From positions 236 to 64,235 of the forward strand of contig CAZFYD010000002.1 in NCBI GenBank assembly GCA_964523315.1: DNA of 64,000 bases, given 5' to 3'. Both the position numbers and the translations under genes were made by a program. The notes under the pieces were generated by a model. It did not search any database. It saw nothing but the letters and a program-made list of their open reading frames with translations, and was not told the DNA's origin. The DNA comes from an uncultured Acetatifactor sp. Lineage in GTDB: Bacteria > Bacillota > Clostridia > Lachnospirales > Lachnospiraceae. Positions 46,716-57,601 of the stretch are shown here, piece by piece (position 1 is the first letter of the stretch; each line of letters begins with the position of its first letter).

Positions 46716-46795
46716 GGATAATCCCCCTGCCTGTAAACTCCGTGCCGGTCACCCCGGGCTGTGCCGCCGCAGGTTCGGCGGTCTTCCTTTTCTTC

Positions 46796-47392
46796 TTACA
46801 GCACCACCGATTTCAGCGTATGGGCAATGCCCGCCGTATTGCCCTCCCCTGTTTCCAGCCCCTGCAGCTGTTTCAGCCGCTCCTTATATTTGTCCAGATC
46901 CGTAAAGATCTTCACCGACACGTTTTTGTGATTGTCCGCCTTTAATATAGGCCCTAAATGGGCCTGAAAGTCCTTTTCCGGGAAATCCTTCTTCTCACTG
47001 TAGCCGCAGACGGTATTGCCCTTCACCGCCATATGTCCCACTACAAAAGTATAAGAATAGGAAGTAAACACCATGTCGTACAGGCAGGTCAGCTCTCCCT
47101 CGAAGGGAGCAATCCGCGCCGCCGCTTCCTGACTGAGACCTTTATACCGCAGAAACATAATCATATTTACTGCACTTTTGCTGGCCGGCAGACAGCCCAG
47201 CACAGCCACGATGGTCAGCAGATTCAGCTTATCCCCGGTGGCAAAATAGCCTGCGGCAAACAGACTCAGAGAGATTCCGAAATACAGCACCGTCCGAAGG
47301 ATCTCATACCTTCTCTGAATCCGCAGATAGTCCCGGCTTCCCTTATATGCTCCGGAAGAGAATATCCTGCCGATCTTTTTTATCCCTTGCAT
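46796..47392 (-). CDS. Conserved hypothetical membrane protein
   Basis: Two TM helices, NLLTIVAVLGCLPASKS motif; AAAGGA RBS. Confidence 0.8.
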   Translation of the reverse strand: MQGIKKIGRIFSSGAYKGSRDYLRIQRRYEILRTVLYFGISLSLFAAGYFATGDKLNLLTIVAVLGCLPASKSAVNMIMFLRYKGLSQEAAARIAPFEGELTCLYDMVFTSYSYTFVVGHMAVKGNTVCGYSEKKDFPEKDFQAHLGPILKADNHKNVSVKIFTDLDKYKERLKQLQGLETGEGNTAGIAHTLKSVVL

Positions 47393-47427
47393 ACATCGAT
47401 TCCTTTCGTCCTTTTATCCTTATCTAC

Positions 47428-47494
47428 ATGCATATCGCCGGTTTTACCTGCGATACTGCACAAATCCGTATATGAAACGTCAGTTTCATACTTT
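47428..47494. repeat. 67-bp two-hairpin dispersed repeat, copy 1
   Basis: 11 bp and 43 bp identical to 55306-55372, flanking a 13-bp variable hairpin tip. Confidence 0.92.
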
Positions 47495-48256
47495 CAGCAT
47501 CCGTATCACAGCGGTAAGCATCGTATGAGGAAGCACCTTGCATGCGCCCTCAAATGCCTGTATGGGAAGGCTGCAGACCGAACGGGCACGCCTATGGCAG
47601 GCATCCCGCAGCGCTTTTTGCACCACCTGCTTTGCAGGAACCATTGTCAGCTTCTTGACGGACAGGGTGGAGCCATGCTTCTCCGCCGTATCAAAGAAAG
47701 GGGTATCCACCGGACCCGGACATACGCTGGTCACATAGATCTCCCGCTCCTTCAGCTCTTCCCGCAAAGCCAGGGAAAAGCTGTCCACATATGCCTTACT
47801 GGCAGCATAGACCGCAAAACCCGGCTGGGCCACAAAGGCGGCGCTGGAGGCCATCTGAATGATCCGGGAGTTTCTGGTCATATAGGGCAGGCAGCACCTC
47901 GTCACTGCGGTAAGCGCTTCACAGTTCACCTGAACCATGCCCAGCTGTTCCCGGAGCGTCAGCTTCGCCACATCCCCGATGATACCGTATCCGGCGCTGT
48001 TTACCAGCATTCTGATCCGGCAGTGTTCCTCCTCCAGCATATCCCGAAGCCTGTCAACCTGTGCACCCACGGTGATATCCATGGCAAGGACCCGCACATT
48101 GTTGCGCAGCTGTGACGCTAAGGTTTTCAGTTTCTGTCTGTTTCTGGCGATCAGCCAGATCTCATTCGTCTTGCGCAGATGGGCATCGATCTGCAAGGCA
48201 AATTCCATGCCTATGCCGGAGGATGCTCCTGTAATAATCACAATACTCTTTGTCAT
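47486..48256 (-). CDS. SDR family NAD(P)-dependent oxidoreductase
   Basis: TGASSGIG, NSAG, YAASK, CPGPVDT. Confidence 0.95.
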   Translation of the reverse strand: MTKSIVIITGASSGIGMEFALQIDAHLRKTNEIWLIARNRQKLKTLASQLRNNVRVLAMDITVGAQVDRLRDMLEEEHCRIRMLVNSAGYGIIGDVAKLTLREQLGMVQVNCEALTAVTRCCLPYMTRNSRIIQMASSAAFVAQPGFAVYAASKAYVDSFSLALREELKEREIYVTSVCPGPVDTPFFDTAEKHGSTLSVKKLTMVPAKQVVQKALRDACHRRARSVCSLPIQAFEGACKVLPHTMLTAVIRMLKV

Positions 48257-48339
48257 AGTCTGCTTTTCCTTTCCTGCTGAGAATTATCTGTCTTTTTCTT
48301 ATGGATATTTCCTCATGACTTTCTGTTTATCCGAATATA

Positions 48340-49311
48340 TTGAGACAAAGCCTCTTTTTCTGCGGTGCCTCCATGCTGTATACTCTGTGTTTTTTGCTGC
48401 TTTTTATACTGATTCTGGTTCAATCCCAGGAGGCGGCGGCTTTTGCCGCCCAGGGCTTTCTGCTCTGGTACTCCAAAATGATCCCCTCCCTGCTTCCCTT
48501 TATGATCCTGTCCGGGCTCATGATCCGTATGGGACTGTCTGAAAGGCTGGGAAACTGGTTTAAGCCGGTTCTCGGGCCATTGCTGCGCTGCAGATCCGAG
48601 GTAAGCTACGGGGTTCTCATGGGCTTTCTCTGCGGATTTCCCATGGGCGCCCGGGTGGCGGCACAGCTGTATCAGTCCGGAAGGATCAGCCGCAAGGAGG
48701 CCCGCTTCCTGCTGGCCTTCTGCAACAATATCGGTCCGGTGTATTTCTGCAGCTTTGTACTGCCCCTCTTAGGGCGCAGGCTGATCCTGCCATATATCCT
48801 GGGCATGTACGGAACGGCTCTGCTCTACGGCATTCTCCTGCGCCGGACGCTGTTTCGAAGCCTGCCGGAACCTGTTTCTGATAAGAGGACCTTACAAATG
48901 CCGACCTCTGTTCCCGTCCCGAAGTCCTCCGGTTCCAGTGGCCTGCTGGCCCATCTTGACGCTGCGGTACAGGCCGGGCTGCAGAGCATTATCAGCCTCT
49001 GCGGCTATATGATCCTCTTTAATCTGCTGAATCTGATTCCCCATCTTTTTCTGCCCCGGATCAGCTGCTGGATCTCTCCGCTGCTGGAGATCACGAGCGG
49101 ATTAAGCCAGCTGGGACAGCGCTGTCCCCTGTACGCCCTGATGATCCTGCCTTTCGGAGGACTCTCCTGCATCGCCCAGACCTACAGCATGATCCGTGAC
49201 ACCGATCTGCCTCTGGAGGAATATGTGATCCATAAGCTCATTCTTACCGCCGTTACCGGCTTGTACTATCTGGCCTGGCGCTGTCTTTTTCCTCATCTTT
49301 TCCTGTTATGA
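48340..49311 (+). CDS. YlbJ-like sporulation integral membrane protein
   Basis: IPSLLPFMILS, GFLCGFPMGA, FCNN.GP, LEITSG, FGGLSCIAQ; start uncertain. Confidence 0.8.
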   Translation: MRQSLFFCGASMLYTLCFLLLFILILVQSQEAAAFAAQGFLLWYSKMIPSLLPFMILSGLMIRMGLSERLGNWFKPVLGPLLRCRSEVSYGVLMGFLCGFPMGARVAAQLYQSGRISRKEARFLLAFCNNIGPVYFCSFVLPLLGRRLILPYILGMYGTALLYGILLRRTLFRSLPEPVSDKRTLQMPTSVPVPKSSGSSGLLAHLDAAVQAGLQSIISLCGYMILFNLLNLIPHLFLPRISCWISPLLEITSGLSQLGQRCPLYALMILPFGGLSCIAQTYSMIRDTDLPLEEYVIHKLILTAVTGLYYLAWRCLFPHLFLL

Positions 49312-50708
49312 CGGCGGCGGGATCTTTTCACCGCCTGCAGGATCTGCAGCGCCATGATCAGCAGCAGAAATACCAGCGCTGCCAACAGGCTCACCAGAAT
49401 AAAGTCCTGTATACTGATCCCCCGGGGCTCCCCATTCTCCTGCTGCGTCTCCTCCCGGACGCCCAGCCAGCCTCCGGCAGAGGCCTGCAGGCTTTCTTCG
49501 GCAGGCTCCTGCGATCCTCTGACCGTCTCCCCAGAAGCAGCCGGGCTCTCTTGCTGCGCCTCCTCCCGGGGCTTCTGAAAGACCGAATAGCCCTCCAGCA
49601 CATTGCTGTCGGTATAGGCCTCATACTGGTTATAGGCCCTGATGCAGATCCGGGGTATGATGCCTTCAGGGATTTCCAGCGTCACCCGGAACACATCCTG
49701 ATATTCTCCGGTCAGCGTATTACAGCCGGGCCAGGGCTGTCTGGAGGAATAGGTAAGTCCGCCGTCCAGACTATAGGCATAGTACATCAGGGGACTGTCA
49801 TAGTCTGCAGCCGTCACCTGGATCTCCGCCTCCAGTCCCTCATAATCTTCACGTAATCGTTCAATGCTGCAGATCTCCGGCGGCGTAGTATCCGGCAATG
49901 TGGACTGCACTACCTTGTCGGGATCCAGGGCATATATCTTCTGCAAAAAAGGATCCTCCGGCTCCCCACTGTAGTCCGTTCCCAGGCTCTCGCTGGATAA
50001 TCCCAGAAACATGGCAATAGCCTCCGCATCCTCGCAGCCGAAATCTTCCCACTCTTCCCGGCTGTCACAGTAAGGAGAATCCCGTACCTCGTCCACATGA
50101 CAGTGTTCAATGAGCACCGCCGGGATATCCAGAGCCACTGCCTCCCGGAGAATCCCATAGTAATCCCCGTTGTCGCCCCGGCGGGTTTTGATCCCCCGGA
50201 TAAACAGGCCCATATTCTGGAATCTGGTCAGCAGGGTACTGCCGAACTGGTAGCCATAGGCGTTATAGGGAGCTTCCAGCGGCACCCATACCTCCGAACC
50301 GAACAGCTCATGATTCTCCGACGCATTATAGTGGATGCTGAACAGGAAATCCGCTCCCACTGATTTCGCATACTCCGCCCGCTCTTTCAGAGAAAGTTTT
50401 GTATCATCGGTGCGGGTCATATACACCTGTACCCCGTCATAGCGGGACAGCACCTCATAGATTGCCTGGGCGGTCACCAAAGTCATCTCCTTTTCACAGA
50501 ATCCGTTTTCTTTAGTGCCCTCATTATTCCCGCCGTGTCCCGGATCGATCACCACCACAATATCCCGATCCTGCTGACGGAATGCATATGCCGCTTCTAC
50601 AGGCAATATCCGGGAGACTGTCAGAAGCACAGTCAGCAGAAATACCATGAATGCAGAAAAACCGGTTTCAAGGGGAAACCGGTTTTGTTTTCTTCTAAAG
50701 TTCCGCAT
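49293..50708 (-). CDS. N-acetylmuramoyl-L-alanine amidase (Amidase_3) with C-terminal membrane anchor
   Basis: IDPGHGG, EK, TR..D, SIHYNA, AVLIE; C-terminal TM plus basic tail. Confidence 0.9.
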   Translation of the reverse strand: MRNFRRKQNRFPLETGFSAFMVFLLTVLLTVSRILPVEAAYAFRQQDRDIVVVIDPGHGGNNEGTKENGFCEKEMTLVTAQAIYEVLSRYDGVQVYMTRTDDTKLSLKERAEYAKSVGADFLFSIHYNASENHELFGSEVWVPLEAPYNAYGYQFGSTLLTRFQNMGLFIRGIKTRRGDNGDYYGILREAVALDIPAVLIEHCHVDEVRDSPYCDSREEWEDFGCEDAEAIAMFLGLSSESLGTDYSGEPEDPFLQKIYALDPDKVVQSTLPDTTPPEICSIERLREDYEGLEAEIQVTAADYDSPLMYYAYSLDGGLTYSSRQPWPGCNTLTGEYQDVFRVTLEIPEGIIPRICIRAYNQYEAYTDSNVLEGYSVFQKPREEAQQESPAASGETVRGSQEPAEESLQASAGGWLGVREETQQENGEPRGISIQDFILVSLLAALVFLLLIMALQILQAVKRSRRRHNRKR

Positions 50709-51291
50709 CTGTATCCTCAACCTTCTCCGACAACACCACATCCTCATAATCGTCTGCGGGATGCAATTCATTTCTGTTGGATTGGATAATATCCCGGTAC
50801 TGATTCATGGATCCGATCAGGTTCTCATAATTGGACGCAGCTGATTGGGTAGCAGAAAGGATAATGTTCTCCAGATGCGCCAGCATATCATCCATGTACT
50901 GCATTGCTGCGGCCCTCACATTGTTGGCCTCTATCGTGGCATTGTCCAGAATCTCCTGAGCCTGCTGGGTAGCCATAGTCACCACCTCATTGGCCTGGGC
51001 ATAGGCCTGCTGCATAATCTCATGTTCATTAATCAGTTCATTGGTATGTATGGTTGCCTCATTGATCAGAGCCTCCGCCTTGGCCCGGGCATCGTTGAGT
51101 ATCGCCTCCTTGTTGCTGATAATCTTCTGATAGCGCTTGATCTCATCCGGCGTCTTCATCCGCAGATCCCGCAGCAGTTCATCGATCTGCTCCTTATTTA
51201 CAATGATCTTGGTACTGGATAAAGGCTGGTACTTACAGCTGTCAATATACTCCTCAATTTCATCGATTAATTGTTCTATTCTGCTACTCAT
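50695..51291 (-). CDS. Conserved coiled-coil protein downstream of coaD
   Basis: Helical protein (I..AR..AE..I, A..QA.E) in the usual rsmD-coaD context; GAGG RBS. Confidence 0.75.
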   Translation of the reverse strand: MSSRIEQLIDEIEEYIDSCKYQPLSSTKIIVNKEQIDELLRDLRMKTPDEIKRYQKIISNKEAILNDARAKAEALINEATIHTNELINEHEIMQQAYAQANEVVTMATQQAQEILDNATIEANNVRAAAMQYMDDMLAHLENIILSATQSAASNYENLIGSMNQYRDIIQSNRNELHPADDYEDVVLSEKVEDTDAEL

Positions 51292-51350
51292 GTAATCCTC
51301 CAAACCCATCCGGCTTTTTTTTAGGCCGGACACCTGATTTCACCGTCCTG

Positions 51351-51836
51351 TCAGCGGTAACCATATTTCCGATAGATCAGCTCTGCCTCCCACTCAGGAA
51401 CACACTGAGAGATGTCTCCGTTAAAGCTTGCAAATTCCTTCACGCTGGTGGAACTCAAGTAAGCATACTGCAGACTGGTGGTCAGGAATATGGTATCCAG
51501 CGCATCATTGGACATCATGCGGTTCGCCTGGGCAATCTGCAGCTCGTACTCAAAGTCCGTGATTGCGCGAAGACCTCTGACGGCAATTTGGAACCCTTTT
51601 TCCCGGCAATAATCGATCAGCAGCCCGCTGAAGCTGTCGACTTTCACATTCGGCAGATCTTTGGTTGCCTCCTCTAATATCTTAACACGTTCTTTTACAG
51701 AAAACAACGGTGTCTTTTGTGTATTATCCAAAACTGCCACAGTCATCTCATCAAACATGTATGCCGCCCGCCGGATAATATCCAGATGTCCAAAGGTCAT
51801 AGGATCAAAGCTTCCCGGATATACTGCCTTCTTCAT
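51351..51836 (-). CDS. coaD: Phosphopantetheine adenylyltransferase
   Basis: [28 protein letters not shown]. Confidence 0.98.
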
Positions 51837-51838
51837 AA

Positions 51839-52402
51839 TTACCTCTTTCCCGCAGCTGCTCTGCGCAGAAATATATGTTTATTGGTCTTATAGATTTTTT
51901 CCCGAACCACACAGAAGCCAAGCTCCTGCGCATAATCCATATGGGTTGCCAGGGAAGCCTCCACAATAATCAGGGTATCTCCCGTCACATAGCGCGTGTC
52001 CTGCAGTGCTTCCAGTACCCGCCTCTCCTGCTCCTGATCATAGGGGGGATCCATAAAAAGGATATCCACTTCTTTTTCCGATATGCCGGATAATGCTGCC
52101 ACGGCATCCTGCCGCAGGATTACGGCCCGATCCTCAAAGTGGGTAAATTTCAGATTTTCTGTGATGCAGGCCAGGGGATCCCGGGCATTTTCGATAAAAT
52201 AAGCCCTTTTGGCTCCCCGGCTCAGGGCCTCAATCCCGATTCCGCCGCTGCCGCTGAACACATCCACAAATACACTGCCCGGAATATCATTCTGCAGGAT
52301 ATTAAACAAAGTCTCCTTGATTCTGTCCGTGGTGGGGCGGGTTCCCTCCCCCAGGGGAGTCTTTAATGGCAGACTCCTTGCCGTACCTGCGATCACTCTC
52401 AT
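51839..52402 (-). CDS. rsmD: 16S rRNA m2G966 methyltransferase
   Basis: [38 protein letters not shown]. Confidence 0.96.
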
Positions 52403-52422
52403 TTAGTCTCTCCTATGCTTCT

Positions 52423-54666
52423 TCAGGCTCTCACTTTGACTCCCTTGGTGTCCCGTTTGCCGAGCTTTAAGCTGTTCAGCACCAGGTTCTTACTCTTATA
52501 GGGAATGGAAGCCTCCACTGCATTCTGGGTATAGTATACACCCTCTATCCTGTCCTTGTCATCTAATTTCATACCACGGACGCCCAAGGCGCCCTTTTTC
52601 TTCTCTGGTATCTCCTCCAGCGCAAACCGCAGGAAGTATCCCCCCCTGGACTGCAGCACGATATGCTTCTGATCATGGAGACAGACGATGCTTACCACCT
52701 TATCCCCCTCCAGCAGCTTTGTGGCAGCCACCGTGCGCTTGCTCACATCAAACTCTCCGCCGTCCACCACCTTCATCATGGACTGAGCTGTGACAAACAG
52801 CACCCTGCAGAGATTCAGCTCCGTCTGGCTGGTCAGGAAAACGATCTCTTCCCTGTCCGAGCTGTAATTGCTCACATTGTCGATGGGCGTACCCTTATCC
52901 CGGAATTTTCCGAAGGGCAGATCCATGACCTTTATGGTGTACAGCTGCCCGGTGTCTGTAAACAGACAGACCTTACCCGTGTTTTTACACCGGAAAACAT
53001 ACTTATTCTCGGCATCCGCCGCATCCCGGTTGCGCTCGTAGGTGGTCAGATCGATGGTCTTGGCATAGCCAAAGCGGTCCATCAGGAACATAATTTCCAT
53101 CTCTTCGATTTCTTTTTCCTTATAGACAGCCTCCTGGGCATTCTCGATGACGGTGCGGCGCTTGCGGCCGTATTCTCTCTTGATCTCCTCCAGCTCGTTG
53201 ATAATGACCTGAGCCATGGAATCCCTGCGGGCCAGAATGTCCTCATAGCGGTAGATATTGGCCATGGTCTCCTCGTGCTCATGAATCAATGCTTCGATCT
53301 CCAGACCGATCAGCTTATACAGACGCATCTCCAGAATGGCGTTGGCCTGTTTCTCGGTGAACATCAGCTGAGCCGCCATGATTTTAGATTCCCTGGACTT
53401 GAATTTGATGCCGTCCACCACGCCGTGTACCAGACATTCCTTGGCCATGTTCCGATCCTTGGAGCCCCGCAGAATCTCAATGATCAGATCGATCACATTG
53501 CAGGCTTTGATCAGACCCTCCTGAATCTCCCTGCGCTCCGTCTCCTTGGCCAGCAAATTGGTGTACTTGCGGGTAGCAACCTCATACTGGAAATCCACTG
53601 TCGCTTTCAGCACCGCTTTCAGGCCCATGATCTCCGGCCTGCCGTTATAGATGGCAAGCATATTGACGCCGAAGGTATCCTCCAGCCGGGTCTTTTTATA
53701 CAGGAGATTCACAAAGTTTTCCGGATCCGCATCCCTGCGCAGTTCGATCACAATGCGAATGCCCTCCTTGGAGGACTGGTTGGAAATATCCACAATATCC
53801 TGGGTCTTCCTGCTCTCCGCCAGGGCCGCTACGTCCTGAAGAAATTTGGAAATATTGCTGCCGATCATCGGATAGGGAATCTCCGTTATAACCACATTGG
53901 TTTTGCCGCCCTTGGATTTTTCAAATTCCACCTTTCCCCGGATCTTGATCTTGCCCGTGCCGGTCTCGTAGATCTCCAGCAGGTCGTCCTTGTTGGTGAC
54001 AATGCCTCCTGTGGGGAAATCCGGGCCTTTGATATGGCGCATCAGCTCCCGGGTCGTAATATTTTCATCCAGCATATAGGCTTTCATGGCGTCGATGACT
54101 TCTCCCAGATTATGAGGAGGCGTACTGGTAGCCATACCCACCGCAATGCCCTCGGAACCGTTAATCAGGAAATTGGGAATCTTTACCGGCAGAACGGTGG
54201 GCTCCTTCTCCGTCTCGTCAAAGTTGGGCATGAAGTCCACCACGTCCTTGTCCAGATCCGCCAGAAACGCTTCCTGCGTGATCTTCTGCAGTCTGGCCTC
54301 CGTGTATCGCATGGCAGCCGCTCCGTCCCCCTCGATATTGCCAAAGTTGCCGTGGCCGTCGACCAGGGGCAGCCCCTTTTTGAAATCCTGACTCATCACC
54401 ACCAGGGAGTCGTAGATAGAGCTGTCGCCGTGGGGATGATATTTACCCATGGTATCGCCCACTATACGGGCGCTCTTCCGGTAGGGCTTATCGTATCGGA
54501 TCCCCAGCTCATGCATATCGTACAGGGTTCTGCGCTGCACGGGCTTTAAGCCGTCCCGCACATCCGGCAGCGCCCTGGCGATAATGACGCTCATGGCATA
54601 GTCGATAAAGGACTTCTGCATCTCCTCCGAATATTCTGTTCTGATGATTCTGCTGTTGTCTTCCAT
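52423..54666 (-). CDS. parC: Type IIA topoisomerase subunit A (probable topoisomerase IV ParC)
   Basis: [30 protein letters not shown]; short C-terminal domain with no visible GyrA box. Confidence 0.82.
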
Positions 54667-54719
54667 ATTTCCCTCTCCGTATTCCCAAATTATATCAAAA
54701 TGAAACATAAAATCAACAC

Positions 54720-54844
54720 TTATCTTCCCACAATGATGCTGTCCACTGCATTGCAGGTCATCTGAAAAATAATTCCCAATACCAGCGGTATCGTAAAACT
54801 GATCAGTATGGGGGAATTTGCCCTTCCCTCAGATCCTTGGTCAT
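54720..54844 (-). pseudogene. N-terminal remnant of a MATE family efflux transporter
   Basis: AAGAGG RBS, then MTKDLREGQIP, a 1-nt frameshift, then ILISFTIPLVLGIIFQMTCNAVDSIIVGR-stop. Confidence 0.8.
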
Positions 54845-54927
54845 TAACAGTACCTCTTGAAGGCTTTATTCCTAAAATTCGGGCAGCTCCGTAAAGACCA
54901 CCTTTTCACCGTCGGCGATTCCCTCCT

Positions 54928-55536
54928 TCAGATCGGCGAAATTTCCTGCTCCTCCAGCGTAATCCAGTATCTCTGTTCGGTCACGCCGTCCTCTGTGATT
55001 TCATTTTCCAGGATACCGCCGTTACGGATGATGCTTTTGGCGGAACCGATATTCTCCTTATCACAAACCATCAGGACTTTGCTGATGCCCAGTTCCCAGC
55101 ATTTCTGCAGTGCCAGTCCGATCATCTCCGTGGCAATCCCTTTTCGCCGTTCGGAAGGTCTGACGCCGTCGCCTATGTGCCCGCCGTTTCGCAGCAGGGC
55201 GTCATTCAGTTCATGCCGGATATTTACGGCGCCCACCATCCTGTTTCTCTCTTCATCCAGACAGAAATAGGTGGAATCCGGCACCAGTCCCAAACTTTCC
55301 TCTGAATGCATATCGCAAGCCGTGCTTGTGATACTGCACAAATCCGTATATGAAACGTCAGTTTCATACTTTGTATCGGTAATATCCAGGTTCCGGCAAT
55401 AATAATCAAAATCATGATAATCCAGACGCCGGATCGCATAGGGAATGATCTTCTCCCCGGAGGCATACCACTCTTCCAGCATCTCGGTGATCTGGGGCCG
55501 ATATTCCTCTGCGGCCCTCACTAATTTCAGTTTCAT
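54928..55536 (-). CDS. GNAT family N-acetyltransferase carrying an in-frame repeat insertion
   Basis: VGAVNIRH, GGHIGDGVRPSERRKG, N.GS.K.I..NGG, RYWI. Confidence 0.92.
   Translation of the reverse strand: MKLKLVRAAEEYRPQITEMLEEWYASGEKIIPYAIRRLDYHDFDYYCRNLDITDTKYETDVSYTDLCSITSTACDMHSEESLGLVPDSTYFCLDEERNRMVGAVNIRHELNDALLRNGGHIGDGVRPSERRKGIATEMIGLALQKCWELGISKVLMVCDKENIGSAKSIIRNGGILENEITEDGVTEQRYWITLEEQEISPI
55306..55372. repeat. 67-bp two-hairpin dispersed repeat, copy 2 (intragenic)
   Basis: Matches 47428-47494; lies within the GNAT ORF. Confidence 0.92.
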
Positions 55537-55672
55537 AAATATATACCTCGTTTCGGCTTATCCCTTATAATCAATATGCAAAAAGCTATATTTGCTCTTA
55601 CCAGTGCATTTCTGAAATACCAGGAGGTTTCTTTTCTGTTACAGGGCATTACCGGCGATGCTGTGAATCGTT

Positions 55673-57601
55673 CTATGCATTATAATCCAGCTCCGCATCC
55701 GTGGCGTGGTCGTAAATAAAGGCTTTGCGGGGCGGGACTTCGGTTCCCATCAGGGTACTGGTAATATCGGAGGCCAGGCGGGCATCCTCGATCTCCACCC
55801 GCTTCATGATCCGGGTAGCAGGATCCAGCGTGGTCTCCCACAGCTGCTGGGCGTCCATCTCTCCCAAGCCCTTATAACGCTGCAGCGTAAAGGGGCCCTT
55901 GTGGGTCTTGCGGTACTTTTCCAGCGCCTTGTCGTCGTAGAGATACTCCTCCTTGCCCTTGGACGGCATGGCCTTGTACAGCGGCGGCATGGCAATATAT
56001 ACATGTCCCTCAAAGATCAGCTCCGGCATGAAACGGTAGAACAGCGTCAGCAGCAGATTTGAAATATGCGCACCGTCCACATCCGCATCCGCCATGATAA
56101 TGATCTTATCGTAGCGCAGCTTGGTGATATCGAAATCATTGCCGTACCCTTCGGAAAAACCGCACCCAAAGGCATTGATCATGGTCTTGATCTCCGCATT
56201 GGCCAGCACCTTGTCTATGCTGGCCTTCTCCACGTTCAGAATCTTGCCTCGGATGGGCAGAATCGCCTGAAAGCTCCGGTCCCGGGCTGTCTTGGCGCTG
56301 CCCCCTGCGGAATCGCCCTCCACAATAAAGATCTCACATTTGGAAGCGTCCTTGGACTCGCAGTTCGCCAGCTTTCCGTTGGAATCAAAGGAGAATTTCT
56401 GCTTGGTCAGCATATTGGTCTTGGCTTTCTCCTCCGTCTTGCGGATCTTGGCCGCTTTTTCCGCACAGGCAATAATATTTTTCAGGGTCTCCAGATTTCG
56501 GTCAAAATACCGGACGATCTCCTCGCCGGTCACCTTTGCCACCACCTTGGCAGCGTCCTGGTTGTCCAGCTTGGTCTTGGTCTGTCCCTCAAAACGGGGA
56601 TCCGGATGCTTGATGGACACCACCGCCGTCATGCCGTTTCGCACATCCGCTCCCGTAAAATTCACATCCTTTTCCTTCAAAACTCCCAGCTCCCGGGCAT
56701 AGGTATTGATTACATTGGTAAACTGGGTCTTGAAGCCGGTCAGGTGGGCACCGCCCTCGGAATTGTAGATATTGTTGCAGAAGCCCAGCACATTCTCATG
56801 AAACTCATTCACATACTGAAAAGCCACCTCAACCACGATGCCTTCAGATTCCCCCTTAAAGTAAATACAGTCATGAACCGGCTCGGCGCCTTTATTCATA
56901 TCCTTGATAAAGCCCGTTATCCCTTCCGGTTCATGGAAGGTCACCTGCTCCGGCTCCTCCTTGCGCTTGTCCTCGAAAATAATGGTCAGATCCGGATTCA
57001 GATAAGCAGTCTCATGCAGGCGGCTCTTCACCTCGTCCTCTTTAAAACGGGTCTTATCAAAAATCGTATCATCCGGCAGGAAATTAATCGTTGTCCCGCT
57101 CTCCCGGGTCTTGCCGATGATCGGAAGCAGACCGTTTTCCAGCTCCACCACCGGCAGGCCCTTCTCATACTGATCCTGATAAATGCACCCTCCCAATTTG
57201 ACTGTAACAGTCAATCGATTGGAAAGTGCATTCACCACGGAGGAGCCCACGCCGTGAAGGCCGCCGCTGGTCTTATAGGCATTATTATCGAATTTGCCCC
57301 CTGCGTGCAGCGTGGTAAACACCAGGCGCTCCGCACTGATTCCTTTTTCATGCATCCCCACCGGGATACCTCTGCCGTTATCGCTTACCGTAGCCGATCC
57401 GTCCGCCTCCAGAGTCACCCGGATCGTGTCACAATAACCGGCCAGATGCTCGTCCACGGAATTGTCTACAATCTCATAGATCAGATGATTCAGTCCCTTG
57501 GTGGACACACTGCCGATATACATGCCCGGGCGTTTCCGTACCGCCTCCAGACCCTCCAGCACGGTTATGCTGGATGCATCATAATTACTTGCTTTAGCCA
57601 T
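55673..57601 (-). CDS. parE: Type IIA topoisomerase subunit B (probable topoisomerase IV ParE)
   Basis: LEAVRKRPGMYIG, EIVDNSVDE, GGLHGVG, EGDSA, DADVDG, YKGLGEM. Confidence 0.82.
   Translation of the reverse strand: MAKASNYDASSITVLEGLEAVRKRPGMYIGSVSTKGLNHLIYEIVDNSVDEHLAGYCDTIRVTLEADGSATVSDNGRGIPVGMHEKGISAERLVFTTLHAGGKFDNNAYKTSGGLHGVGSSVVNALSNRLTVTVKLGGCIYQDQYEKGLPVVELENGLLPIIGKTRESGTTINFLPDDTIFDKTRFKEDEVKSRLHETAYLNPDLTIIFEDKRKEEPEQVTFHEPEGITGFIKDMNKGAEPVHDCIYFKGESEGIVVEVAFQYVNEFHENVLGFCNNIYNSEGGAHLTGFKTQFTNVINTYARELGVLKEKDVNFTGADVRNGMTAVVSIKHPDPRFEGQTKTKLDNQDAAKVVAKVTGEEIVRYFDRNLETLKNIIACAEKAAKIRKTEEKAKTNMLTKQKFSFDSNGKLANCESKDASKCEIFIVEGDSAGGSAKTARDRSFQAILPIRGKILNVEKASIDKVLANAEIKTMINAFGCGFSEGYGNDFDITKLRYDKIIIMADADVDGAHISNLLLTLFYRFMPELIFEGHVYIAMPPLYKAMPSKGKEEYLYDDKALEKYRKTHKGPFTLQRYKGLGEMDAQQLWETTLDPATRIMKRVEIEDARLASDITSTLMGTEVPPRKAFIYDHATDAELDYNA

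Follow-up and report, generated by a model that had tools for sequence, protein, structure and literature searches.

The window analysed here, 64,000 nt of contig C2 (positions 236-64235; CAZFYD010000002.1) from the draft genome of an uncultured Acetatifactor sp., carries two copies of a short structured repeat. Taken as a whole, the evidence is best explained by a non-autonomous Lachnospiraceae repeat of ~74 nt, made up of two hairpins, that has recently multiplied in this species; the probability of this reading is put at roughly 0.7. It is built on the observed multiplicity and insertion of the units, their orientation, the position of a ribosome-binding site, the covariation of the stems and the taxonomic spread. 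A first-pass annotation of the window had pointed to two 67-base look-alikes, an observation that is correct yet far too narrow. Unseen at that stage were the constant direction of the units relative to genes, their 3'-terminal Shine-Dalgarno sequence, a sister subfamily, the composites formed by the two subfamilies, and the spread of the repeat in Lachnospiraceae.

Read in the sense orientation, which is the reverse complement of the strand written in the first-pass annotation, the unit consists of AAGT, hairpin 2, a conserved linker, hairpin 1 and a purine-rich tail. Hairpin 1 is built of an outer stem, one bulged G, a variable inner stem and a 3-nt loop. Two subfamilies are distinguished: A, the type of both window copies, and B, a sister subfamily with the same layout and other stem sequences. 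The 3' tail is GGAGAGG in B, and AGAGG or TAAGG followed by AAAGT in A. AAG(T) is present at the 5' junction of all A copies, and the same letters are found at most A 3' ends. The consensus has no terminal inverted repeats; the unit ends are direct AAGT repeats.

Copy 1 lies at 47419..47494 on the minus strand, where a core match coincides with a covariance-model match (model R1, described below) at C2:47656-47705. Copy 2, also found by both searches, lies at 55294..55371 on the minus strand and has AAGT on both sides. Both copies were thus located as first claimed, and the earlier description also holds for the shared ATGCATATCGC and for the 13 nt that vary at the tip of hairpin 1. The two 43-nt cores, 47452-47494 and 55330-55372, do not differ at any position; a search of the window that allowed up to 3 mismatches gave these two sites only, and two matches occurred in 0 of 100 shuffles. 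Hairpin 2 has an 8-bp stem and a 4-nt loop in the predicted fold of copy 1 (47471..47490, minus strand) and is assigned in copy 2 (55349..55368, minus strand) by identity, in keeping with the earlier statement that it is invariant. Hairpin 1 folds at 47430..47459 (minus strand) in copy 1, where the tip of the inner stem is variant and one position is a C.T mismatch, and at 55308..55337 (minus strand) in copy 2, where the tip is of the majority type with one G.T pair. A direct reading of the two bears out what had been said of them: equal length, a preserved loop of 3 nt, two base pairs with both partners exchanged, and a G-C pair that has become G.T. On the minus strand, copy 1 runs in the order AAGT, hairpin 2, linker, hairpin 1 and a degenerate Shine-Dalgarno-like end.

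Is the element limited to two copies? The genome (a 2.51-Mb draft in 200 contigs, 81.5 % complete, 51.7 % G+C) contains 46 copies of the 43-nt core at up to 3 mismatches, far beyond two, and 48 at up to 6 mismatches; the reversed control pattern gives 0. A family profile was made from 45 units; at E up to 1e-3 it gives 109 hits that do not overlap. About half of these are of type A, most of the others belong to subfamily B, and the remainder are diverged singletons that retain the outer stem of hairpin 1 and the 3' tail. Covariance model R1, which represents the conserved 50-nt 3' half of the unit (alignment A2), recovers 132 family members in the genome at E up to 0.01. Neither a mere pair of copies nor a catalogued Rfam family, the two outcomes that the first-pass annotation had named as fatal to its idea, is what was found: there are 132 members, and the whole window gives no Rfam match at gathering score. 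At E up to 1, Rfam likewise gave no match in three loci with A units, B units, and units of the congener G262 and of G072. A literature search gave no paper that describes an element of this kind from Lachnospiraceae or Clostridia.

The A copies are more than 95 % identical, their flanks are unrelated, and in their alignment sequence conservation falls sharply beyond the unit of ~74-80 nt. Five tandem pairs have a period of 74 nt, and 12 of the 52 A units run directly into another unit, typically A and then B. A unit can land next to an existing one, giving 74-nt tandems and A-B composites. A unit is no more than 200 nt away from 21 of the 400 contig ends; the repeat thus fragments the assembly and is a main cause of assembly breaks in this metagenome-assembled genome. 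Contig C2 itself starts with an A unit and then a B unit ahead of its first gene (C2:5-153, just before the window). On contig C87 (1800-2810), three A units, two of them in tandem, lie inside 1 kb and flank open reading frames (ORFs) of very low coding score, a patch rich in repeats. A CRISPR or integron attC array can be ruled out despite the 74-nt tandems, as the units are dispersed among ordinary genes on many contigs. A longer master element was not seen among the profile hits; those covering the 5' half only represent a unit cut off at a contig end, a degenerate copy and an isolated hairpin 2.

That both window copies are real insertions is observed by comparison with relatives, the check that had been proposed from the window. 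For copy 1, a 7-kb contig from a public run with related contigs (X2, ~90 % identical) joins 46762-47418 to 47491-48297, and the 72 nt at 47419-47490 are absent. CTT, which is AAG on the minus strand, is found on both sides of these 72 nt, which leaves the boundary free to move by 3 nt. Written accordingly, the insert begins with the canonical AAGT; the empty site fits either a 3-nt duplication or none. No clear target duplication was seen and no transposase is near the copies, as had been remarked earlier. The last codon and the TGA stop of a short-chain dehydrogenase (SDR) gene (47486..48256, minus strand; adh_short, E 2.9e-39) come from copy 1, the TGA being inside hairpin 2; in the empty allele the SDR gene must end a few bases further, in native sequence. 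The nearest GTDB congeners, 70-81 % identical, are not syntenic at copy 1 and offer no nucleotide-level empty site.

Copy 2 is an in-frame insert of 25 codons in a GNAT acetyltransferase gene (54928..55536, minus strand). Relative to four congeneric orthologues, which lack the unit, the GNAT ORF has exactly 25 extra in-frame codons, and these are the A unit. Nearly all of the 120 best homologues have 169-174 aa vs 202 aa here, and 75 nt are missing at this site from contigs of two other runs, X3 and X4. A public 174-aa protein from another sample (P0002) is identical to the GNAT protein at 172 of 174 residues; it keeps the first four element-encoded residues and is without 28 residues, i.e. 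the rest of the element and the native five-residue GLVPD. It was considered as the ancestral empty allele and rejected, as it represents a secondary in-frame deletion that keeps four element residues. Among the 109 units, copy 2 is the sole clear intragenic case noticed; the family is otherwise intergenic.

A further filled site is found on contig C3, in an operon encoding an HlyD-like protein, a MacB-type permease and an ABC ATPase. The spacer between permease and ATPase is 176 nt long here and consists of a Shine-Dalgarno-like stretch, an A unit and a B unit. Three close relatives have a spacer of 22-25 nt that includes a native ribosome-binding site; in four others its length is 70-90 nt. 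Some relatives (loci L118-L120) have in this spacer another type of hairpin, GTGTGAAA...TTTCACAC, which also precedes a unit in another genus (G148, locus L157). This hairpin may represent a further, third module of the repeat system.

How are the units placed with respect to genes? Plain longest-ORF rules were too noisy for this question, and genes were called with a codon-usage score trained on the longest ORFs of the genome. The downstream gene is co-oriented with the unit in 89 of 97 called cases and the upstream gene in 82 of 89; 67 of the 109 units are flanked by two genes of one direction and point the same way as these. The upstream genes mostly end 3-150 nt ahead of the unit. In the window, both copies fit the flanking minus-strand genes, as had been noted from their common orientation relative to transcription. 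Of the units with enough sequence context, 59 of 62 are on the G-rich strand, and genes behave likewise (1058 of 1189).

A coding-scored start codon follows the unit by 2-9 nt, usually by exactly 5, in 38 of the 52 B or diverged units. Judged by its letters and its position, the tail of the unit is a Shine-Dalgarno sequence. In 16 of the 52 A units the start codon is 10-60 nt away, behind a native-looking ribosome-binding site, and at some loci an older ribosome-binding site is visible ahead of the unit. A consensus scan of A and B units for sigma-70-like promoters gave none inside the units except one 9/12 match that runs into a gene start, with counts at shuffle level. An intrinsic terminator was also considered and rejected: there is no U tract after the hairpins, and scans found nothing inside the units.

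A conserved fold upstream of genes, with neither terminator nor promoter inside, brings to mind a gene-specific regulatory leader of a regulon, such as a riboswitch, a protein operator or an attenuator. The downstream genes, however, are functionally unrelated (gyrB/parE-like, dnaG, dnaJ, recX, HPr, sortase, ABC ATPase and TPR-protein genes, among others), and the copies are more than 95 % identical in spite of unrelated flanks. Tandem copies are present, relatives have empty sites, and no Rfam family matches even at the permissive threshold given above. A regulon leader or riboswitch is rejected by the unrelated downstream genes and the empty sites, and in the broader form of this proposal is hardly credible.

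The open frames within the units suggest another role, a coupling unit comparable to MIRUs, in which a translated mini-ORF that overlaps its neighbours would hand ribosomes over between successive cistrons. Within the A unit, a frame of ~25 codons starts with ATG, and its TGA overlaps the next ATG in tandem copies and on contigs C27 and C15. In the B unit, a stop-free, in-frame stretch of 75 nt leads from a TTG to the ATG of the gene, and the ORF lister extends genes into the B unit for this reason. The location of 67 of the 109 units between co-directional genes also fits. On the other hand, most upstream genes have their stop codon 3-150 nt ahead of the unit, the 74-nt period of A is not divisible by 3, and a 25-codon open frame is estimated by us to arise by chance in roughly a third of cases. 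Ribosome coupling, suggested by the letters of these frames, thus appears quite improbable.

The hairpins are conserved as structures. Predicted folds show both hairpins on either strand, with z-scores of -3.1 to -5.4, and leave the tail unpaired. In an alignment of 59 units of this genome, 95.9 % of the cells of hairpin 1 are paired vs 52 % at most in slid controls, and the covariation score is reached by 0 of 500 shuffles. A second alignment, of 31 units, combines this genome, G262, other congeners and two other genera; here 94 % are paired in hairpin 1 and 81.5 % in hairpin 2, vs 44 % at most when slid in either case, the figure for hairpin 2 being lowered by four rows that are mis-registered there. 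Pairs changed on both sides number 8 of 14 in hairpin 1 within this genome, and 12 of 14 in hairpin 1 and 3 of 7 in hairpin 2 among the 31 units, counts that refer to sequences and not to independent events. The covariance-model search that had been suggested for the motif gives 132 members, both stems covary, and what had been conceived as a dispersed, apparently non-autonomous element with a conserved fold is borne out by the 46 core copies and by compensatory changes throughout the family.

Substitution rates in subfamily A (44 copies) are 0.85 % in stems, 10.4 % in loops and 7.8 % in linkers, i.e. the stems have about 10-fold fewer substitutions than loops or linkers; the corresponding rates in subfamily B (25 copies) are 2.6 %, 13.3 % and 11.3 %. 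Variation is largely shared between copies and therefore reflects sub-lineages of whatever is being copied. Singleton variants were taken as a better proxy for change after insertion. In subfamily A, singletons are depleted in stems (5 over 48 sites vs 11 over 25, p = 0.006); in subfamily B they are not (10 over 50 sites vs 3 over 23). Among the mismatches in hairpin 1, G.U (20) and A.C (17) are equally frequent, so there is no sign of the structure acting in sense RNA specifically.

These figures bear on the proposal that the unit is a functional mRNA module, for example a 5' stabilizer, a processing site or a ribosome-binding-site insulator, that is kept by selection and has spread by its usefulness. 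The layout of hairpin, Shine-Dalgarno sequence and ATG is conserved across genera despite very different stems, the ribosome-binding site is unpaired in the predicted folds, and stem singletons are depleted in subfamily A. Moreover, three units lie in a context of opposite skew, and two of them still follow the downstream gene while one does not. The balance of G.U and A.C mismatches, however, gives no RNA-strand signature, and subfamily B has no stem depletion of singletons. In addition, such a function is not expected at the sites of the window copies, which are a stop codon in one case and the interior of a coding sequence in the other, and copy number ranges from 0 to 132 among congeners. 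An mRNA module is a possible explanation though not a probable one; it can coexist with that of a recently multiplied repeat, with which it is compatible.

Where else is the repeat found? The exact A core is absent from one genome each of 200 other genera of the family, from 18 congeners and from 12 other families of the order. Among 185,579 species, just two further records contain it, 'Lachnospiraceae bacterium' and 'uncultured Acetatifactor sp.', one of which has a neighbouring unit with both stems changed on both sides. Relatives are seen by covariance model R1 and not by the exact-core search. R1 matches are present in 19 of 60 other congeners, mostly in 1-8 copies and with 32 in G262, and in 8 of 150 other genera, with counts of at least 27, 24, 11, 9, 5, 2, 1 and 1. 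The order of hairpin, G-rich tail and start codon is seen at 17 of 17 congeneric loci and at 8 of 8 loci from other genera. In G262, the 21 units inspected have diverged further from each other, and a 75-nt tandem triple is among them. In relatives, the genes that follow the motif are again unrelated in function; they encode DUF7768, gyrB/parE-like, BspA-type LRR, ABC ATPase, RecX, TPR, sortase, HPr, DnaJ and DnaG proteins.

What could move such a unit? The first-pass annotation inferred a mobile element and compared it with REP/RAYT substrates; the structured, dispersed insertion stands, and the REP/RAYT comparison does not. REP/REPIN sequences with their RAYT enzymes, and the palindrome-associated elements of the IS200/IS605 type, are hairpin-based, have no terminal inverted repeats, and show a fixed short junction and a strand bias. 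REP/REPIN units are about 20-40 nt, each a single imperfect palindrome, strictly extragenic, and the RAYT gene is typically flanked by the repeats; elements derived from IS200/IS605 insert 3' of a fixed tetra- or pentanucleotide with no target duplication. For an element of this kind, a Y1/HUH transposase would insert a single-stranded DNA form into the template of the lagging strand. Several properties fit: two subterminal hairpins without terminal inverted repeats, a constant 5' AAG(T) whose letters recur at most 3' ends such that new copies can insert behind old ones, the 74-nt tandem arrays, and the strong bias to the G-rich strand. In contrast to REP/REPIN, however, the unit is ~74 nt long, has two different hairpins, a conserved linker and a ribosome-binding site, and has one copy in a coding sequence. 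The Y1 transposase does not co-occur with the units: its family, PF01797, has 0 matches in this genome (81.5 % complete) and is absent from six congeners with 5-32 copies each (G262, G255, G261, G270, G201 and G205). It is present in 22 of 60 congeners and in only 2 of the 5 highest-copy genomes. An IS110-type DEDD domain is above cut-off in 3 of these 5, one being a fragment with stops, and TnpB is present in 1 of the 5. Y1/HUH, IS110-type DEDD and TnpB enzymes were rejected as mobilizers, as none co-occurs with copy number. Derivation from REP/REPIN or IS200/IS605 elements is accordingly unlikely.

Other classes of repeats offer partial parallels. The direct AAGT repeats at the ends set the unit apart from miniature inverted repeat transposable elements, which have terminal inverted repeats. 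Rickettsia palindromic elements are inserted inside genes and translated in frame, and copy 2, in frame in a gene whose frame is left open, is reminiscent of them. The family here is otherwise intergenic, however, and copy 2 is its only clear intragenic case.

The closest described analogues are Neisseria REP2 and the MIRUs. In Delihas 2011 (PMC3184786), Neisseria REP2 and Borrelia IR-A/IR-B are described as having no terminal inverted repeats, two internal stem-loops and a 3' ribosome-binding site; they lie immediately upstream of ORFs, may themselves be read as open frames, and are of unknown origin and way of spreading according to that review. REP2 is 120-150 nt in length, is present in about 25 copies and is described with a promoter and an ATG (PMC3184786). 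The lack of terminal inverted repeats, the two internal stem-loops and the 3' ribosome-binding site just before ORFs (38/52 of B or diverged units, 5/52 of A units) are found here as well. Unlike REP2 as presented in that source, the family has units of ~74 nt in more than 100 copies and no promoter-like match, is mostly operon-internal, is modular and tandem, and belongs to another phylum. It would therefore be an analogue of REP2 and not a member, the comparison being one of descriptions.

MIRUs (Supply et al. 1997, as summarized in PMC3184786) are 40-100 nt long, lie between genes of operons and are co-transcribed. They have filled and empty sites between relatives, short direct repeats at junctions and tandem copies; their open frames touch neighbouring genes, they have imperfect terminal inverted repeats, and there are about 40-50 copies in Mycobacterium (PMC3184786). 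Location between genes of operons, gene orientation (67/109) and tandem pairs (five) are shared with the units described here. These have no terminal inverted repeats, and MIRUs are not described there as giving a ribosome-binding site. MIRU-like overlap with ORFs occurs as a stop at copy 1 and as a start on contigs C27 and C15; it is not general, as upstream genes mostly end ahead of the unit. A third parallel is BOX of Streptococcus pneumoniae (Croucher et al. 2011, PMC3049150), described there as modular hairpin repeats in transcribed intergenic regions that create or extend ORFs. The units here are similarly modular, small, interspersed hairpin repeats that can create or extend ORFs. BOX, however, has IS-like terminal inverted repeats, is enriched between convergent genes, and has frames without a good Shine-Dalgarno sequence (PMC3049150), as opposed to the family here, which is co-oriented with genes, ends in a Shine-Dalgarno sequence and has no terminal inverted repeats.

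Several observations weigh against the reading of a mobile repeat that carries its own ribosome-binding site. There is a single nucleotide-level empty site, that of copy 1, and it is known by alignment coordinates and not by letters. The insertion sizes seen are 72, 74 (the tandem period) and 75 nt; as they differ, either the ends are not sharp or small changes took place after insertion. No mobilizing enzyme was found, in that Y1, IS110-type and TnpB proteins do not track copy number. Gene orientation is confounded with replication direction. Only 5 of the 52 A units abut a start codon, and neither window copy supplies the ribosome-binding site of a gene; the 198-aa gene downstream of copy 1 (46796..47392, minus strand; no Pfam match) has its own Shine-Dalgarno-like stretch ~28 nt past the unit. 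An older ribosome-binding site upstream of solitary units is not above control (28/77 vs 22/77 control windows), nor is it for B alone (9/15 vs 6/15). Finally, the genome is a draft, with 81.5 % completeness and 200 contigs.

With these points taken into account, how might a non-autonomous two-hairpin repeat have spread? A unit with its own ribosome-binding site could sit in operons before a start codon without shutting off the next gene, and start-adjacent copies would survive because of it, while copies landing elsewhere would survive only if harmless. Copy 1 would be a case where the last codon and stop of the SDR gene were rewritten, and copy 2 one where 25 in-frame residues were added to the linker of the GNAT protein. 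The two hairpins would be a requirement of the propagation machinery, most likely as folded single-stranded DNA handled by an enzyme; the constant 5' AAG(T) and the arrays that share AAG(T) would suit a single-strand, hairpin-guided mechanism. Once transcribed, hairpins folded as predicted may also shield the ribosome-binding site or the mRNA end. A more far-reaching proposal is that the units are mobile translation-initiation cassettes, widespread in Lachnospiraceae, that preferentially settle at the junction of ribosome-binding site and start codon, replace the native site, and are propagated by a hairpin-recognizing activity other than Y1/RAYT, IS110-type or TnpB, with hairpins that insulate downstream translation from the upstream context. 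This proposal is tentative, and in its entirety rather doubtful.

A few features of the window remain to be mentioned. The tip of hairpin 1 in copy 1 is atypical for subfamily A, in which the majority tip is of the copy-2 type. It nearly matches (47430-47459) that of a unit before a TPR-protein gene in the congeners G270 and G255. From its letters, copy 1 may descend from a sub-lineage that is older than, or distinct from, that of the other A units. A plus-strand ORF of 385 aa (46958-48115) runs across copy 1 and both minus-strand genes and is, by codon score, a spurious antisense frame. The GNAT gene with copy 2 is placed between gyrB/parE-like and gyrA/parC-like genes; gene and insert are thus lodged within a type II topoisomerase gene pair (52423-57601, minus strand).

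Abundant gut bacteria have these repeats ahead of housekeeping genes and in some cases within them. Proteins gain peptide segments from the units, as GNAT has done, and the annotation of start codons is affected, in that ORF callers extend genes into the in-frame, stop-free B unit of 25 codons. They also break metagenome assemblies. Units differ between close relatives and could therefore serve as strain markers, as MIRU-VNTR loci do. If it is true that the hairpin together with the Shine-Dalgarno sequence insulates translation, the unit would be a natural counterpart of engineered ribosome-binding-site insulators and would be usable in those Clostridia that are hard to engineer.

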